The notes under the pieces: model-generated | The model's database searches: none | What the model was told of the DNA's origin: nothing | What the model saw: the letters and a program-made list of their open reading frames with translations, nothing else | Program-made: the position numbers and the translations under genes | Virus record (IMG/VR): IMGVR_UViG_2695420589_000012 | Source: a virus | Lineage: Duplodnaviria; Heunggongvirae; Uroviricota; Caudoviricetes | Strand: one strand, 5' to 3' | Length of the DNA stretch: 13,874 bases | Part shown: in pieces, positions 2,704-13,469 of the stretch | Position numbering within the stretch: the stretch's first letter is position 1 | Layout of the letters: every line of letters begins with the position of its first letter

Positions 2704-4228
2704 GAATCCTCCCGGCCGGGATAATATTGTGAGTAAAATAAGGAGCGGGCTGAAGTCCGGAAGTTACAGGACAATGGCAGAAGAGAGACGACAGCCCGCA
2801 ATTCGAAAAAGACCGCGCAGTTGCGCAGAGTGATTACTATGGGGTATTATTCGCCAGCTGAAATATTACTTCACGTTTTATTGTTTATTCCTTGCCGCCC
2901 GCGTCNNNNNNNNNNNNNNNNNNNNNNNNNNNNNNNNNNNNNNNNNNNNNNNNNNNNNNNNNNNNNNNNNNNNNNNNNNNNNNNNNNNNNNNNNNNNNNN
3001 NNNNNNNNNNNNNNNNNNNNNNNNNNNNNNNNNNNNNNNNNNNNNNNNNNNNNNNNNNNNNNNNNNNNNNNNNNNNNNNNNNNNNNNNNNNNNNNNNNNN
3101 NNNNNNNNNNNNNNNNNNNNNNNNNNNNNNNNNNNNNNNNNNNNNNNNNNNNNNNNNNNNNNNNNNNNNNNNNNNNNNNNNNNNNNNNNNNNNNNNNNNN
3201 NNNNNNNNNNNNNNNNNNNNNNNNNNNNNNNNNNNNNNNNNNNNNNNNNNNNNNNNNNNNNNNNNNNNNNNNNNNNNNNNNNNNNNNNNNNNNNNNNNNN
3301 NNNNNNNNNNNNNNNNNNNNNNNNNNNNNNNNNNNNNNNNNNNNNNNNNNNNNNNNNNNNNNNNNNNNNNNNNNNNNNNNNNNNNNNNNNNNNNNNNNNN
3401 NNNNNNNNNNNNNNNNNNNNNNNNNNNNNNNNNNNNNNNNNNNNNNNNNNNNNNNNNNNNNNNNNNNNNNNNNNNNNNNNNNNNNNNNNNNNNNNNNNNN
3501 NNNNNNNNNNNNNNNNNNNNNNNNNNNNNNNNNNNNNNNNNNNNNNNNNNNNNNNNNNNNNNNNNNNNNNNNNNNNNNNNNNNNNNNNNNNNNNNNNNNN
3601 NNNNNNNNNNNNNNNNNNNNNNNNNNNNNNNNNNNNNNNNNNNNNNNNNNNNNNNNNNNNNNNNNNNNNNNNNNNNNNNNNNNNNNNNNNNNNNNNNNNN
3701 NNNNNNNNNNNNNNNNNNNNNNNNNNNNNNNNNNNNNNNNNNNNNNNNNNNNNNNNNNNNNNNNNNNNNNNNNNNNNNNNNNNNNNNNNNNNNNNNNNNN
3801 NNNNNNNNNNNNNNNNNNNNNNNNNNNNNNNNNNNNNNNNNNNNNNNNNNNNNNNNNNNNNNNNNNNNNNNNNNNNNNNNNNNNNNNNNNNNGCGGATGG
3901 GCCTGGAAGGATAGCGGTCATGTGATGCCGGTTTCCCGGTAACTCAGCACCGGTATCTGAGTCAACGTTTTCTCTACTGGGTCATTTCCGATACGCCCTG
4001 CCTGCTGACAGGCTTTCATCACATCTGACAAAATCAATATAAACAGCCCCTCNNNNNNNNNNNNNNNNNNNNNNNNNNNNNNNNNNNNNNNNNNNNNNNN
4101 NNNNNNNNNNNNNNNNNNNNNNNNNNNNNNNNNNNNNNNNNNNNNNNNNNNNNNNNNNNNNNNNNNNNNNNNNNNNNNNNNNNNNNNNNNNNNNNNNNNN
4201 NNNNNNNNNNNNNNNNNNNNNNNNNNNN

Positions 4229-4262
4229 TCCTTATGGACTAAAACAACAAAGTCCATAAGGA
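4229..4262 (-). promoter_or_regulatory. Perfect 12-bp inverted repeat (stem-loop) abutting a masked block; possible 5'-UTR structure or terminator
   Basis: tccttatggact - aaaacaacaa - agtccataagga: arms are exact reverse complements with a 10-nt loop. On the minus strand the 3' arm ends in AAGGA (SD-like) immediately before the mask. The repeat could extend into the mask. Confidence 0.4.
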
Positions 4263-4343
4263 GTTTACTCACATCTGAAAATATAGCACCCTGACTGATA
4301 CTGTAGTACCTAAGGTTCCAGAAACTGTGATGTATCCGGCACA

Positions 4344-4367
4344 GAAAAGCCCCTCCGGAGAGGGCTG
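4344..4367 (-). terminator. Candidate intrinsic terminator downstream of the 117-aa accessory ORF
   Basis: Minus strand GCCCU-cuccgga-GGGGC followed by UUUUCU: a short GC stem (4 G-C pairs plus one G.U) with a U-run. Modest stem, hence low confidence. Confidence 0.3.
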
Positions 4368-4758
4368 GAGAGTGGCGCTATGTGCCATTGCATGATGCCG
4401 GGTGCCTCCCGGTGAATTCAGTACCAGCACCTGAATCCGCGATTATCCCATATACCTACTCGCTGATTGCCCCTCCGCACAGGGGGATTCACCATGCCAG
4501 TTTCTTTTAACAAACTCCCCGCAAACCAGACAACAGTCAACCGCCTGAATTGTGAAGTATTTAAAAATTTCTCCCGCTAACTGATACCCGGCTAACAGTC
4601 TGGCGTTTTCTTTTTCAGCAACGGGAAAGCAACAACCACCACACCCGCCACCAGCACACCGTCAGCCAGCACTGACATTATCCGGCTGCTGCAATGCCAT
4701 TCACAAAAACAGTAAGCAATCACTTTTTACCGTAACAGGTGATAATCCAGATATGTAT

Positions 4759-5112
4759 CTACCCCAGATGAGTAATCCGAAGTTCATCCATACCACAGGT
4801 CCTGGCTATTCTGTTGTACTCCTGAACAAGAGCAAATAATTCTGAATTAGCAACCATGAACTCATCGCAAACCCTCTGTATAGCATCACTATTCAGAATA
4901 ATAACGTCTCTTCCCGAAAGACGATCAGGAGTACAGAACAAAACTGTCAAACGGCTGAAGGCCTTTGCTCGTGCTGCATTGACTATATCAATACGCTGCC
5001 TAAGGATGAAACACCCCGACGCCTCATCAATATTCACTCTACCCACACCATATGAATGATAAATATTTAATGCTGAAAAAACCATTAGACCGTATAACAA
5101 ACACTCAATCAA
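4759..5112 (-). CDS. Hypothetical low-GC accessory (moron) protein, 117 aa from a TTG start or 108 aa from the internal ATG at 5085
   Basis: Intact ORF starting about 110 nt downstream of the tRNA cluster. The track's M is a TTG codon; the first ATG gives MVFSALNIYHSYGVGRVNIDEASG. Codon usage is strongly skewed to rare codons: 6 of 11 Arg codons are AGA/AGG and 3 of 11 Ile codons are ATA, the codons read by the adjacent tRNAs. I do not recognise the protein. Confidence 0.45.
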   Translation of the reverse strand: MIECLLYGLMVFSALNIYHSYGVGRVNIDEASGCFILRQRIDIVNAARAKAFSRLTVLFCTPDRLSGRDVIILNSDAIQRVCDEFMVANSELFALVQEYNRIARTCGMDELRITHLG

Positions 5113-5222
5113 TACTTAACAGAACTTTTATTTTTGACAAACATAAAATATTTTCAACAATATCCTGAGCCAGGTATATTTCAGTATAAGGCTCTGCCGG
5201 AAGGAATCTGGAAGAATGAATA

Positions 5223-5299
5223 TGGCGCGCTGTACTGGATTCGAACCAGTGACCGATTGCTTAGAAGGCAATTGCTCTGTCCGGCTGAGCTAACAACGC
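5223..5299 (-). tRNA. argO: tRNA-Arg, anticodon UCU (reads AGA/AGG), 77 nt including CCA
   Basis: Hand-folded cloverleaf: acceptor GCGTTGT/ACAGCGC, D-arm GCTC/GAGC, anticodon stem ATTGC/GCAAT with loop CTTCTAA, T-arm ACTGG-TTCGAAT-CCAGT, encoded CCA. The symbol follows the ileZ-argN-argO order known from Stx phage 933W; which Arg gene carries which name is from memory. Confidence 0.85.
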
Positions 5300-5312
5300 A
5301 TGATGCAGATAA

Positions 5313-5389
5313 TGGACCGCCATCGGGGACTTGAACCCCGCGCAGCCAGCTTCGAAGGCTGGCGCTCTTTCCTGATGAGCTAATGGCGG
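5313..5389 (-). tRNA. argN: tRNA-Arg, anticodon UCG as read from the sequence, 77 nt including CCA
   Basis: Cloverleaf: acceptor CCGCCAT/ATGGCGG (C1-G72), D-arm GCTC/GAGC, anticodon stem CCAGC/GCTGG with loop CTTCGAA, T-arm CGGGG-TTCAAGT-CCCCG, CCA. The UCG anticodon is my direct reading; the symbol is assigned by position only. Confidence 0.78.
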
Positions 5390-5396
5390 TATGTGA

Positions 5397-5472
5397 TGGT
5401 GGCCCTTGCTGGATTTGAACCAGCGACCTGGCGATTATGAGTCGCTCGCTCTCACCACTGAGCTAAAGGGCC
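5397..5472 (-). tRNA. ileZ: tRNA with CAU anticodon, ileX-like (probable lysidine-modified tRNA-Ile2 reading AUA), 76 nt including CCA
   Basis: GGCCCTTTAGCTCAGTGGTGAGAGCGAGCGACTCATAATCGCCAGGTCGCTGGTTCAAATCCAGCAAGGGCCACCA. Anticodon loop CTCATAA. The body resembles E. coli ileX rather than initiator or elongator Met tRNA. First of three tandem tRNAs, 40 nt downstream of the methyltransferase stop. Confidence 0.85.
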
Positions 5473-5512
5473 GGGAGCCGCATAATAACGACGCGTAATT
5501 AATTCTTCAATA

Positions 5513-6470
5513 TCATCCGTTCTGGCTGACTAAATCCTGTACTTCCCGAACCGTCTGCTCAAAACGTTCAGTCTCCAGCTCAACGCCAATTGCACGACGC
5601 CCGAGCGCCAGTGCCGCTTTCACTGTCGAACCCAACCCCATGAAAAAATCTGCAATCAGGTCACCCGGACGACTGCTAGCGCTGATTATCTGCTGCAGCA
5701 TTTCTGCCGGTTTTTCGCACGGATGTTTCCCGGGATAGAACTGCACCGGTTTATGCGTCCACACATCGGTATACGGCACCTGCACCGTCACGCCAAAATA
5801 CCGCCGCAGATGTTTATATTCACTCAGCAGCTCCGCATACTGCCGGTTCAGTGAGGTATACGTATCCACCAGCTGGTGGTGGAGCTTTTCCAGTTCACCA
5901 CGCCGATGCTTCTCTTCTGCCACCCGGGCAAACAGCGCCTGTAATTTCAGATAATCGCTTTCATTCGGCAACTGCCACTGACCGGCACTGAACCAGTGCG
6001 ACACCATGTTTTTCTTTCCTGTGGCATCTGCAATCTGTTTTGCCGTTATCCCCAGGGCAGCTCGCGCATCACGAAAGTAAGAAATCAGCGGGGCCATCAC
6101 ATGCTGTTTCAGTGCACTGCCCTTCGCCGCATACCCGGCATCTTTCGGACGATACGGCCCCTGATAATGTTCCGCGAACAGAATGCGCTCTGTGGCGGGG
6201 AAATACGCCCGCAGGCTTTCCTTGTTGCATCCGTTCCAGCGTCCGGACGGCTTCGCCCAGATAATATGGTTCAGCACACTGAAGCGTTCACGCATCATGA
6301 TTTCGATATCAGATGCCAGGCGATGACCACAGAACAGGTAAAGACTTCCGGCAGGTTTCAGCACCCGCCAGAACTGCGCCAGACACTGGTCCAGCCACTT
6401 CAGGTAATCATCGTCGCCCTTCCACTGGTTATCCCAGCCCTCAGGCTTCACTTTAAAGTACGGCGGGTCC
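5513..6470 (-). CDS. DNA N6-adenine (or N4-cytosine) methyltransferase, beta-class; C-terminal 319 aa visible, N-terminus masked
   Basis: Visible part starts at catalytic motif IV DPPY (DPPYFKVKPEGWDNQ) and carries the AdoMet-binding motif I near the C-terminus (DLIADFFMGLGSTVKAALALGRRAIGVE). The IV-before-I order is typical of beta-class amino-MTases. Stop TGA at 5513-5515. Confidence 0.8.
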
Positions 6471-7248
6471 NNNNNNNNNNNNNNNNNNNNNNNNNNNNNN
6501 NNNNNNNNNNNNNNNNNNNNNNNNNNNNNNNNNNNNNNNNNNNNNNNNNNNNNNNNNNNNNNNNNNNNNNNNNNNNNNNNNNNNNNNNNNNNNNNNNNNN
6601 NNNNNNNNNNNNNNNNNNNNNNNNNNNNNNNNNNNNNNNNNNNNNNNNNNNNNNNNNNNNNNNNNNNNNNNNNNNNNNNNNNNNNNNNNNNNNNNNNNNN
6701 NNNNNNNNNNNNNNNNNNNNNNNNNNNNNNNNNNNNNNNNNNNNNNNNNNNNNNNNNNNNNNNNNNNNNNNNNNNNNNNNNNNNNNNNNNNNNNNNNNNN
6801 NNNNNNNNNNNNNNNNNNNNNNNNNNNNNNNNNNNNNNNNNNNNNNNNNNNNNNNNNNNNNNNNNNNNNNNNNNNNNNNNNNNNNNNNNNNNNNNNNNNN
6901 NNNNNNNNNNNNNNNNNNNNNNNNNNNNNNNNNNNNNNNNNNNNNNNNNNNNNNNNNNNNNNNNNNNNNNNNNNNNNNNNNNNNNNNNNNNNNNNNNNNN
7001 NNNNNNNNNNNNNNNNNNNNNNNNNNNNNNNNNNNNNNNNNNNNNNNNNNNNNNNNNNNNNNNNNNNNNNNNNNNNNNNNNNNNNNNNNNNNNNNNNNNN
7101 NNNNNNNNNNNNNNNNNNNNNNNNNNNNNNNNNNNNNNNNNNNNNNNNNNNNNNNNNNNNNNNNNNNNNNNNNNNNNNNNNNNNNNNNNNNNNNNNNNNN
7201 NNNNNNNNNNNNNNNNNNNNNNNNNNNNAGGCATANNNNNNNNNNNNN

Positions 7249-8068
7249 ACCTAGTTACCTTTTTTAACTGCCGCTCAGCCCATGCTTCTTCAATATCAAA
7301 CCGGGTCACCAGCGCATCATAAAATTTCTTAACTGTTTTTTCCCATGACGCGCGTGTTATCTGGTTTGTCACCTCGCATATAGCATTAAATGCCTCCGTT
7401 GATGGTAGTCTTTCATAGCCACGACCACCACAACGCTGGCAGTCTCTGATAACAGGCATACCACGTTTTACCGACTCTTCACGATGAATGGCGACACCAC
7501 GCCCACGGCAATCCTTACAGGCGGTGGAAACCTCACCCTTTCCGCCACACTCCGGACAGGCAACTTTTACCACCTCCCTGACTTTTTTCCATTCTTCCCA
7601 GTAAGACGGATACACACCTTTCGTACACTTTGCCCATACCGGCGGCTTACCATCCGGATACTGGATCTTGTTTGTAAAAACCTCGCTTTCAATAAATTTT
7701 TTTCCGTGACAGCAGGGGCACTGTTTTTTGCTCGCCGCGCTACGGGCATAATCTTCAAACGCATACGAAGCCATAATACGCATCACTGCCGGTTTTATTT
7801 CTGCCGGGAGTTTTCTTAACGCCGCCACGCGATCACACCGACTGAGTGCATATTCTGTCAGCAATTCTGTTGCCCGCTCTCTGTCATTCATACTAATGCC
7901 CATTTTCCCAAGGAACGCAGAAACCCCCATCTCAGCCCGATTCTGTGTCATGCCCTGCGCGGCCATCACATCAGTGATACTCAGCGCATCTTTCGACGTT
8001 GAGGCCGATGCATCAGTCAGGCCGGGGGATTTTGGGGAGTAGTATTTCGGTAAATCTTCCAGTTTCAT
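7249..8068 (-). CDS. Q: Probable late-gene antiterminator Q (phage-82 / QuuQ-like family) with four CxxCxGxG zinc-finger repeats; C-terminal end masked
   Basis: ATG at 8068 overlaps the rusA stop (ATGA), the conserved rusA-Q arrangement in lambdoid nin regions. N-terminus MKLEDLPKYYSPKSPGL resembles Q82-family proteins as I recall them. Four Cys pairs are visible (CPCCHGKKF, CPECGGKGEV, CKDCRGRG, CQRCGGRG). The family call rests on position plus memory, not a search. Confidence 0.55.
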
Positions 8069-10616: not shown

Positions 10617-11675
10617 TTATGCTTTCCACTTCAGAACACCCGAATTTCTCGCGTGCATTAAAAAACGAATCAGCAACAACAGCTGACTGCCGTGTTTCTC
10701 TTCAAAATCTTTTACTCCGGCATGTAGTTCGTTACGGCATTTACGGCATAACGGAATAACAAACAAATCATCAGCCTTTGTTCCCATCCCTCCCAGTCCA
10801 TGACCAATGATGTGATGCGGATCATCTGCCTGATTGCCACACGTCATGCATTTCTGCGTTTTTACCCAGCGCGTGTATACAGGCATCTCTTCCCGTTGTG
10901 ATTTCTGGCGCTGGAGATACTGAGCCGGTGACTCCGGATCAACGGCAATGCTGACCACCGTCTTTTCCTGTGGTGGGTTCTGTTGCTGGTGGACGTGAGG
11001 CAGTAACGCAATATTTTTTGTGCGCTGCTTCAGTATGCTGGTGGCTGTCTGCTCTCCCGGTATGATGTCGCTTTCACTGTACACAGAGCGAATTTTTTCC
11101 GCACGCAACCCCAGCGAACGACGTAATACCGCTTCCGGTAGCGCGTCCGCCACCTGATTGCGGACCGCCCACCAGGATAATTCAGCCAGAGATAATTCAC
11201 GCTCCTGCGTACCGCTTATTGCGTGACCGATGACGTCAATCATCCATGCTGACAGGTTTTGATGAGCAAGTTGCTCGAGTGATTCGGATGTCTGGTCACG
11301 CAGCTGGTTGTCGCAGTGCCAGCACAACACCATTGCGCCGGTACCATAACGGTGAATGACGGTTTCGCTGTGATGATAATCGCCGTGTGGCCACTGGCAG
11401 GATTTAATATGGCGCAACAGCCAGTCAGACAATGCACCAGCACCACCAGCAGCACGAATCACCCGTGCGTTACTGAAAAACGGCAGCAATGTTTTGTCTT
11501 CCACCAGCGGCTGGCGAGCGGCAGGAACGACCCCGGACGGCAGATTACGCATGCTTTTTGGTTCCGGCTCCACCAGTATTCTGCCGTTATGGAATGCTGA
11601 CATTGATTCACGGCCTGGCTTAACGATAACCAGACCGAGTTCCGGTACCAGAACAGGTCGAAGTAATACCCGCAC
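10617..11675 (-). CDS. Prophage DUF968-like protein with C-terminal HNH-type zinc-finger nuclease motif; N-terminus probably continues into the mask
   Basis: C-terminus CMTCGNQADDPHHIIGHGLGGMGTKADDLFVIPLCRKCRNELHAGVKDF shows a CxxC ... HH ... CxxC ... H arrangement. Position upstream of rusA/Q matches ydfU-like genes of lambdoid prophages. The visible start is a GTG 3 nt from the mask edge. Confidence 0.6.
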   Translation of the reverse strand: MRVLLRPVLVPELGLVIVKPGRESMSAFHNGRILVEPEPKSMRNLPSGVVPAARQPLVEDKTLLPFFSNARVIRAAGGAGALSDWLLRHIKSCQWPHGDYHHSETVIHRYGTGAMVLCWHCDNQLRDQTSESLEQLAHQNLSAWMIDVIGHAISGTQERELSLAELSWWAVRNQVADALPEAVLRRSLGLRAEKIRSVYSESDIIPGEQTATSILKQRTKNIALLPHVHQQQNPPQEKTVVSIAVDPESPAQYLQRQKSQREEMPVYTRWVKTQKCMTCGNQADDPHHIIGHGLGGMGTKADDLFVIPLCRKCRNELHAGVKDFEEKHGSQLLLLIRFLMHARNSGVLKWKA

Positions 11676-12577
11676 ATTNNNNNNNNNNNNNNNNNNNNNN
11701 NNNNNNNNNNNNNNNNNNNNNNNNNNNNNNNNNNNNNNNNNNNNNNNNNNNNNNNNNNNNNNNNNNNNNNNNNNNNNNNNNNNNNNNNNNNNNNNNNNNN
11801 NNNNNNNNNNNNNNNNNNNNNNNNNNNNNNNNNNNNNNNNNNNNNNNNNNNNNNNNNNNNNNNNNNNNNNNNNNNNNNNNNNNNNNNNNNNNNNNNNNNN
11901 NNNNNNNNNNNNNNNNNNNNNNNNNNNNNNNNNNNNNNNNNNNNNNNNNNNNNNNNNNNNNNNNNNNNNNNNNNNNNNNNNNNNNNNNNNNNNNNNNNNN
12001 NNNNNNNNNNNNNNNNNNNNNNNNNNNNNNNNNNNNNNNNNNNNNNNNNNNNNNNNNNNNNNNNNNNNNNNNNNNNNNNNNNNNNNNNNNNNNNNNNNNN
12101 NNNNNNNNNNNNNNNNNNNNNNNNNNNNNNNNNNNNNNNNNNNNNNNNNNNNNNNNNNNNNNNNNNNNNNNNNNNNNNNNNNNNNNNNNNNNNNNNNNNN
12201 NNNNNNNNNNNNNNNNNNNNNNNNNNNNNNNNNNNNNNNNNNNNNNNNNNNNNNNNNNNNNNNNNNNNNNNNNNNNNNNNNNNNNNNNNNNNNNNNNNNN
12301 NNNNNNNNNNNNNNNNNNNNNNNNNNNNNNNNNNNNNNNNNNNNNNNNNNNNNNNNNNNNNNNNNNNNNNNNNNNNNNNNNNNNNNNNNNNNNNNNNNNN
12401 NNNNNNNNNNNNNNNNNNNNNNNNNNNNNNNNNNNNNNNNNNNNNNNNNNNNNNNNNNNNNNNNNNNNNNNNNNNNNNNNNNNNNTCCCCTGTTCGGGGT
12501 CCATCCCTCTTCTCCCTGCGCGCTACTTAAGTATTTTTGATTCTATTCCGGCACCATCTAAAACTTCAAACGCGTTG

Positions 12578-12677: not shown

Positions 12678-12833
12678 TTACTCCTCAGGTTCGTAAGCTG
12701 TGAAGACAGCGACCTCCGTCTGGCCGGTTCGAATTCGTACCTCGCAGAGGTCTTTCCTCGTTACCAGTGCCGTCACTATGACGGTTAAACAGATGACGAT
12801 CAGGGCGATTAACATCGCCTTTTGCTGCTTCAT
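12678..12833 (-). CDS. hok: Hok/Gef-family type I toxin (HokD/RelF-like), 51 aa
   Basis: MKQQKAMLIALIVICLTVIVTALVTRKDLCEVRIRTGQTEVAVFTAYEPEE: single TM helix plus conserved Cys periplasmic tail, matching HokD/RelF as I recall it. SD AAGGAG lies 7 nt upstream of the ATG. The track ORF (to 12890) is an in-frame 19-codon upstream extension. Confidence 0.85.
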   Translation of the reverse strand: MKQQKAMLIALIVICLTVIVTALVTRKDLCEVRIRTGQTEVAVFTAYEPEE

Positions 12834-13044
12834 AGCCTGCTTCTCCTTGCCTTTCGGCACGTAAGAGGCTAACCTAGATTTGCCGTTCATAGATTGAGCC
12901 TCAGATTAATGTTAAGCGTCTTGCCGGACGCGTAATGTTAACTGGGGCTTTTCTCTATCTGCCTTTTGGTGTTCATGCCTGAGACAGATAGCCTCAAGCA
13001 CCCGCTGCAATTCTACTTAACTCTCCTTTTCCCGCAAACCGTTT

Positions 13045-13128
13045 TTATCCCCAGCGGCAAATCGAATACACCACCAGCGCCACCGCCATCGCAATTCCTA
13101 CCGTTGTTAATGCTTCAGGCCAGGTCAT
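13045..13128 (-). CDS. Candidate 27-aa single-TM peptide, translationally coupled to the upstream gene
   Basis: ATG overlaps the stop of the 114-aa gene (ATGA). Product [27 protein letters not shown]; GGAGG lies about 10 nt upstream. Short ORF, so it could be fortuitous. Confidence 0.3.
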
Positions 13129-13469
13129 CGTAAAATATCCTCCACGCTTATCAGTCCGTTCCGCTCCAGATAACTCATCGCCTTATCCGGTAATTTGCAG
13201 TCTGGCTTCGCTTTCCTCAGTTGCCAGGTTAACTGCTTTACCAGCATGGTTAACTCATCGACCAGACGCTGATATCCCACTGGTTTGTATTCATGCAATT
13301 TACCGGCTGGCTCTGCTGCCAGCGATACCAGTGCGATTTCCAGAACAGCAATATCCATCTTATATGTGCGGATGATGTCATGGTCGATTGTGCCCGGTAT
13401 GCACAGTCTCTGTGCTTCAATAGTCTCCTCTGCGTGAGCTATTAACTGCTCTCTGGTAAAAGTCGTCAT
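13125..13469 (-). CDS. Hypothetical phage early-region protein, 114 aa
   Basis: [25 protein letters not shown] ... ISVEDILR; SD GAAGGGG upstream; start overlaps the stop of the 55-aa gene (ATGA). Shares N-terminal and mid-sequence motifs with the 55-aa protein. Confidence 0.6.

Follow-up and report, generated by a model that had tools for sequence, protein, structure and literature searches.

A predicted two-helix accessory protein encoded at the stx2AB insertion point of a prophage late region

Among lambdoid prophages, the cargo of greatest consequence, Shiga toxin (Stx) included, is found between the antiterminator gene Q and the lysis genes. In Sp5 of Escherichia coli O157:H7 Sakai and in other 933W-type phages, the stx2AB cassette is flanked on the left by the tRNA genes ileZ-argN-argO and on the right by an STnc100-like RNA element that lies upstream of nanS-p. 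We analysed a 13,874-nt stretch of tailed-phage DNA (IMG/VR record IMGVR_UViG_2695420589_000012, Caudoviricetes; referred to below as the window) in which the same insertion point holds another cassette, made up of a small open reading frame (ORF) on the minus strand and a DUF3927 mini-gene. Sequence comparisons identify the ORF as a real gene of 92 codons whose uncharacterised product belongs to a phage protein family that is catalogued but unstudied, and as an accessory gene ('moron') of temperate phages and, more rarely, of plasmids. Two described phages encode relatives. Sb55 of Salmonella phage ST64B is a homologue with 33% identity to the Serratia type of the family, and phage mEp460 (mEp460_ev081) contains an unannotated ORF whose product is 99% identical to the window protein.

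The ORF at 4759-5112 (minus strand) can be read as 117 amino acids from a TTG codon or as 108 amino acids from an ATG at 5085, and these were the lengths given in an earlier note on this DNA. Both appear too long. A 92-amino acid model (4759..5037, minus strand), which runs from a GTG at 5037 to a TAG at 4759-4761, fits better because all distant homologues begin at the position equivalent to this GTG, because the reading frame upstream of it is broken by a stop in the related locus L005 and by a 4-nt deletion in L004, and because predicted pairing with the anti-Shine-Dalgarno sequence is best here (-4.5 kcal/mol, against -2.4 at ATG 5085 and -0.9 at TTG 5112). The 25 in-frame codons that precede the GTG (5038..5112, minus strand) and give rise to the longer readings show more amino acid variants per codon than the core among 81 near-identical loci from IMG/VR and GTDB, and residues 1-23 of the 117-amino acid reading have an AlphaFold predicted local distance difference test score (pLDDT) below 50. 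This extension is most likely a 5' leader and not coding.

The NCBI annotation pipeline (PGAP) places no gene at the ORF in the main-variant RefSeq genomes inspected (those behind matches H1, H2 and H22-H57; for example 6443-6941 in L001 and 6457-6955 in L002). Such a blank might imply a chance ORF in the AT-rich trailer of the tRNA cluster, and the GTG start with its weak Shine-Dalgarno sequence would suit that view, but the evolutionary evidence makes it highly improbable. An alignment of three lineages that share about 70% nucleotide identity (the window, L003/L004 and L005) has no insertions or deletions across the last 92 codons. The ratio of nonsynonymous to synonymous substitution (dN/dS) is 0.26-0.27 in the three pairwise comparisons; with the exception of the mirror antisense frame, the remaining frames give values near 1. 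The differences fall mostly at third codon positions (24/23/44 by position in one example). The 92-codon core is open in 81/81 of the near-identical loci, so the gene is conserved intact in related prophages. Homologues at 20-40% identity in six genera share its length and have proper Shine-Dalgarno sequences, the predicted fold is confident (see below), and PGAP itself calls a 92-amino acid protein (WP_001017777.1) from the same start in a divergent copy. The same protein has also been deposited in GenBank and UniProt as hypothetical (e.g. AKK54112.1, A0A136WL65_ECOLX). A gene under purifying selection is thus skipped by current RefSeq annotation, and the gap is systematic, touching roughly one in four complete E. 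coli genomes. A 67-amino acid ORF on the opposite strand (4856-5059, plus strand) was considered and rejected, as it is interrupted in relatives and the low dN/dS that it seems to have is what mirroring of the sense frame would produce.

The position of the gene was compared with that of stx2AB by blastn against Sakai Sp5. On the tRNA side, homology covers window positions 5623-5215 (92% identity) and ends 8 nt after argO (argO2 in Sakai); it resumes at window position 4555, which corresponds to 46 nt after the stx2B stop codon. Because homology breaks after argO and returns after stx2B, the intervening cassette of approximately 660 bp (4556..5214, minus strand), containing the ORF and the DUF3927 gene, is on this alignment and the Sp5 annotation allelic with stx2AB and inserted at the same point, in agreement with the placement of the ORF in the stx slot by the earlier note. 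The left flank consists of three tRNA genes on the minus strand, named ileZ2, argN2 and argO2 in Sp5. The first (5397..5472) has the anticodon CAU and is of the ileZ type, being called Met by ARAGORN and tRNA-Ile by RefSeq and in Sakai. The second (5313..5389) is a tRNA-Arg with anticodon UCG, equivalent to argN, and the third (5223..5299) is a tRNA-Arg with anticodon UCU, equivalent to argO. An AT-rich spacer (5113..5222, minus strand; GC about 0.30) separates argO from the ORF, the TTG lying 110 nt beyond argO and GTG 5037 lying 185 nt beyond it. The right flank is a conserved STnc100-like RNA element (4337..4526, minus strand; Rfam RF02076, 122.5 bits), which terminates at a terminator-like hairpin at 4366-4348 found in a terminator scan. 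GC content is 0.30-0.44 across 4755-5204 and 0.41-0.44 within the ORF, compared with 0.50-0.59 (about 0.52) in the flanks. The ORF, the three tRNAs and the 110-nt gap were all as first described, and the characterisation of the ORF as a low-GC accessory gene without an assigned role holds.

This arrangement is widespread. Of 5426 complete E. coli genomes, 1315 contain the segment, with at least 95% identity in 1186 and 60-80% identity in 128, and the gene ranks among the most frequent occupants of the precise stx insertion point. Its carriers include strains of ST131 (e.g. JJ1887), O104:H4 (C227-11) and enteropathogenic E. coli (EPEC; E2348/69). The tRNA cluster was located at 7593 sites, spread over 3061 genomes of the same set, and the ORF at 1488 sites; by these counts about one-fifth of tRNA-bearing late regions carry the ORF. 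In related loci the gene starts 184-187 nt after argO in 78 of 81 cases, and DUF3927 is the next gene in 74 of 81. The tRNA set upstream of the cassette is itself variable: argN is missing from 72 of the 81 near-identical loci, which carry ileZ and argO alone, and the window retains all three. Among related prophages, the ORF is present in some tRNA-bearing late regions and is replaced by stx2AB in Sp5, and relatives also carry other cargo in the interval between Q and the holin gene. In L001 this interval contains a gene for an IraM-like anti-adapter (5695-6030), and in L004 it contains genes for a protein with a TolA C-terminal domain (5323-6048) and for a YdeO/GadX-like AraC regulator of the PsrA/PsrB/PatE kind (6744-7172). 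The STnc100-like element also varies in number. L002 has a second copy, about 70% identical, further downstream (5591-5820), and L004 has several apparent tandem copies between the cargo slot and nanS-p (3458-4955).

The earlier note had further proposed that the codon usage of the ORF matches the adjacent phage tRNAs, following the tRNA-coupled translation proposed for stx, such that the ORF is rich in AGA, AGG and ATA because its translation depends on ileZ, argN and argO. The counts themselves are correct. In the 117-codon ORF, three AGA and three AGG codons account for 6 of 11 Arg codons, and ATA for 3 of 11 Ile codons; in the 92-codon core the values are 5/10 for AGA plus AGG (AGR) and 3/9 for ATA. 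The AGR share is nominally above that of the other window genes pooled after their frames had been checked (26/163, 16%; p = 0.018 for the core and 0.006 for the 117-codon reading), the ORF follows argO at 110-185 nt in 78/81 related loci, and stx2A, which occupies this slot in Sp5, likewise uses many of these codons (AGR 8/24, ATA 15/20). Nevertheless, the dependence on the tRNAs is improbable. The position-specific base composition of the ORF predicts an AGR share of 0.42 (P = 0.42) and an ATA share of 0.22 (P = 0.32), close to what is observed, and ATA is not enriched relative to the other window genes (30/115, 26%; p = 0.7). Homologues that lack argO or any nearby tRNA have similar usage (AGR 21/65 and ATA 24/84 when summed), and the ATA bias of stx2A is much stronger than that of the window ORF. 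In addition, identity within the main-variant block nowhere falls below 98%, which means that its adjacency to the tRNAs stems from a single recent module and not from selection acting repeatedly. The counts thus do show a codon skew, but AT-rich composition explains it and it does not follow the presence of the tRNAs. Roughly 5-7% of Arg codons in E. coli core genes are AGR, and 7-8% of Ile codons are ATA. Within the window, AGR is similarly frequent in hok (2/4), the holin gene (3/7) and an ORF at 13125-13469 (3/7), that is 43-50%, and since other window genes are rich in AGR and ATA the phage tRNAs plausibly serve the whole late region. A literature search for ileZ, argN or argO in connection with rare codons returned nothing relevant. 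Adjacency to ileZ-argN-argO together with rare codons is by itself no evidence of tRNA-cargo coupling, because AT-rich composition accounts for the codon counts.

Searches with the protein defined a small family that, judged from the sequences retrieved, is restricted to the Enterobacterales. A HMMER search of 1.84 billion representative proteins gave 21 members and a profile search of 5.8 billion clusters gave 40 clusters, with hosts in E. coli/Shigella, Citrobacter (freundii complex), Salmonella, Morganella, Serratia and Xenorhabdus; all entries are named hypothetical. Residues 10-117 of the 117-amino acid reading match the whole phrog_2873 profile (1-108/108; E 3.8e-70), and the 92-amino acid core matches it at E 5.6e-58. 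The match to phrog_4827 is weaker for the window protein (E 2.2e-05) and reaches 1.1e-19 for relatives. Among the aligned family members 21/21 match phrog_2873 and 20/21 match phrog_4827, both of which are PHROGs of unknown function. Pfam and NCBIfam yielded no family at E <= 1 for the window protein, with scattered single matches in relatives at E >= 0.018. The description of the protein as unrecognised consequently holds for Pfam, NCBIfam and the names of database entries, but not for PHROG, where the match is full-length, nor for the sequence databases, where the protein is already deposited. A search of the literature with a peptide of the protein found nothing relevant. One 62%-identical copy lies at 1039-1314 of a 2.7-kb contig (JAEWMQ010000075.1) from a metagenome-assembled genome labelled 'Bacillota bacterium', which is probably mis-binned phage or Enterobacterales DNA.

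An AlphaFold2 model built from the family alignment (pLDDT 88.1, predicted template modelling score 0.74) consists of a helix at residues 3-34, a loop at 35-49 and a helix at 50-81, and on this model the protein is an antiparallel two-helix hairpin. Residues R23, N64 and N75 are invariant in the family and C9, L12, E66, V71 and A78 nearly so. By inspection of the model, the conserved residues lie on a/d stripes that face each other within the hairpin, with the polar R23, N64 and N75 buried, and each helix has a second hydrophobic stripe, making the hydrophobic face unusually broad. The second stripe suggests that the modelled hairpin may oligomerise further. The 92-amino acid core has no enzyme, membrane or DNA-binding signature; by inspection it also lacks a signal peptide and transmembrane segment and is close to neutral in net charge. 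Profile and structure searches thus provided a PHROG family and a confident hairpin, but the fold matches of the model are generic. When the PDB was searched by sequence, two family profiles gave no more than sub-threshold matches to GapR, RAD23 and Rop-like coiled coils. Membership of the GapR/UPF0335 family (DUF2312) was rejected, as the match covers helix 1 alone and is sub-threshold (E 0.055-0.29), and the near-neutral charge of the protein is, by inspection, unlike that of GapR.

Most members of the family, including distant ones at 20-43% identity, are encoded between Q and the holin or lysis genes, as seen in E. coli, Citrobacter, Salmonella, Serratia, Morganella and locus L116. Other positions occur. 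Sb55 is located after the lysis genes in ST64B, and in Mu-like tail modules a member lies between the tape measure and DNA-circulation genes. On Rep3 plasmids a member is found opposite the PapB regulator of a K88-like fimbrial usher operon, one member follows the end of a type IV pilus operon, and another follows a GerE/BglJ-like helix-turn-helix gene. For the main variant, a search of a plasmid collection gave two E. coli replicon-sized records and no true plasmid copy. The Serratia copy (L104) is bracketed by terminator-like hairpins (5846-5870 and 6372-6393), and no promoter was found there; after Q the same locus has a promoter-like site and a strong hairpin (5291-5410) in a PR'/tR'-like arrangement. 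The scattered positions, AT-rich composition and terminator-bracketed Serratia copy are hallmarks of a moron. The window gene shows the traits of a late-region moron, as it lies between Q and the lysis genes on their strand, is swapped for stx2AB in Sp5 and differs from its surroundings in base composition.

We favour, at about an even chance, the reading that the gene is a conserved cytoplasmic two-helix moron within the stx-slot cassette, that it is expressed late and acts by binding another protein, and that its codons are a by-product of composition. Expression would occur by read-through of the Q-antiterminated late transcript, because the gene is on the same strand as Q, the tRNAs and the lysis genes and a scan of the window found no minus-strand terminator-like site between 5700 and the start of the ORF, or between the methylase gene and that start. 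PR' and tR' are masked in the window. The first good terminator is that 3' of the STnc100-like element, and a weak promoter of its own may also contribute, the single upstream candidate being a sigma-70-like match in the spacer (TTGAAA-16-AAAAAT at 5157-5130; a consensus match only, 9/12). The protein would then oligomerise and bind a host or phage protein, modulating or inhibiting it rather than being an enzyme or a toxin. This mode of action is suggested by exclusion, since catalytic, membrane and DNA-binding signatures are lacking, and by the broad hydrophobic face with R23, N64 and N75. A bolder extension of the same reading, which we regard as doubtful, is that the protein represents an unrecognised class of small late phage effector whose R23/N64/N75 face locks onto one conserved enterobacterial protein, such as an acid-resistance or adhesin regulator, a defence sensor or a lysis or envelope factor. 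The cassette with DUF3927 would in that case be a functional alternative to stx in about one-fifth of tRNA-bearing E. coli prophage late regions and would alter host physiology in ST131, O104:H4 and EPEC E2348/69.

The contexts of some members raise the question of a regulatory partner. In one E. coli lineage (80 genomes) the gene occupies the same slot 89 nt downstream of a YdeO/GadX-like AraC regulator, and the members near the GerE/BglJ-like gene, PapB and the type IV pilus operon add to this pattern. The protein might accordingly be an anti-activator or co-regulator that partners the transcription factors of acquired virulence and adhesin loci, in the manner of ANR proteins such as Aar, which bind AraC-family activators and H-NS; like the ANRs it is small, all-helical and probably oligomeric (PMC4983702). 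Such a role, functionally similar to ANR/Aar, is possible by analogy, but as an account of this gene it is unlikely. The ANRs are smaller than 10 kDa, have three helices and conserve A10, E14, A22, W26, A29, W43 and R47 (PMC4983702). The window protein has two helices and no Trp, so that it lacks W26 and W43, and alignment of the family profile with Aar of strain 042 by hhalign gave a probability of 0.7%; membership of the ANR/Aar family is rejected on these grounds. Moreover, most family members have no adjoining regulator gene, and O157 loci of the psrA/psrB type match the regulator part of the query alone.

Two further roles, in lysis timing and in defence or anti-defence, are possible, with nothing specific in their favour. 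A role in the late functions or lysis timing of lambdoid phages, such as that of a cytoplasmic holin regulator, would account for the location of the gene inside the Q-to-lysis interval in six genera and directly 5' of the holin gene in Morganella and L116. It is quite improbable, as the gene can be replaced by stx2AB and some members have no holin nearby, being located in Mu-like tail modules, on plasmids or beside pilus operons. In addition, most sequenced lambdoid phages lack the gene: tblastn with the 108-amino acid window form, the Serratia-type protein P0039 and the Citrobacter-type protein P0023 matched only 5 of 50,697 phage records.

The interval from Q to the holin gene S is a known hot spot for defence and exclusion morons. 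The window gene lies in it, is AT-rich and varies in position, which would suit a gene for defence, anti-defence or superinfection exclusion, perhaps working in concert with a DUF3927 membrane mini-protein. The DUF3927 gene (4592..4723, minus strand) begins 36 nt 3' of the ORF and encodes 43 amino acids with one hydrophobic helix and a KKK tail; PGAP annotates its equivalent as a DUF3927 family protein. Its product matches phrog_1470 (E 7.8e-13), which is labelled 'TciB-like inhibition of cell division or resistance to colicin', and in the literature on TciB and DUF3927 nothing was found to support that label. A defensive role is nonetheless about as improbable as one in lysis timing. PADLOC-DB 2.0 gave no match for the window protein, DUF3927 or three of four other family members, the fourth (P0025) having a weak match to HEC-06 (E 0.009), and the DUF3927 partner is confined to the main variant in E. 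coli and a single Citrobacter lineage. An obligate module of the ORF and DUF3927 was rejected because, outside the E. coli main variant, a hidden Markov model search covering 17 family loci detected DUF3927 solely in the Citrobacter locus (L089).

On the minus strand the window reads RusA, Q, methylase, tRNAs, ORF, DUF3927, STnc100, nanS-p and holin. It contains 3359 masked positions (N) in eight runs (102-333, 1624-2008, 2906-3892, 4053-4228, 6471-7228, 7236-7248, 10598 and 11679-12485), and the region of interest, 4230-6470, is free of masking. Reading across masked N creates artefacts. The 851-amino acid ORF at 5513-8068, which appears to fuse the antiterminator domain of Q with that of a DNA methylase, is one of these, as are the long ORFs at 2878-3921, 11620-12504 and 80-379. 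The nanS-p gene is split by a masked run into halves at 750-1623 and 2009-2703 in different frames. Elsewhere in the window there is a hok/sok-type type I toxin-antitoxin locus (12678-13003, minus strand). Its sok RNA (RF01794, 112 bits) is at 12828-13003, the hok/mok reading frame lies in an adjoining 70-codon ORF (12678-12890), and hokD is annotated at the equivalent place in L002.

With the corrected model of 92 amino acids from GTG and a defined family with its genomic contexts, the gene is directly testable. PHROG 2873, PHROG 4827, Sb55 and the mEp460 ORF are true homologues by sequence, and as none has a known function membership adds no mechanism. The prefoldin beta subunit and other antiparallel coiled-coil hairpins are among the closest known systems to the window protein. 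The ANR family (Aar, Cnr, Rnr) resembles the window family in being small, all-alpha and probably oligomeric and in residing on mobile elements of enteric pathogens, sometimes beside AraC-type regulators or adhesin operons; however, ANRs have approximately 63-70 amino acids, three helices and conserved Trp residues, whereas the window family has 91-99 amino acids and two long helices, and its E. coli members have no Trp. The protein has no sequence or fold relation to Stx, being a 92-amino acid helical hairpin without a signal peptide. What its cassette shares with stx2AB, besides the insertion point, is its make-up and setting: both comprise two genes, are AT-rich and lie on the same strand at the same position in the late operon.

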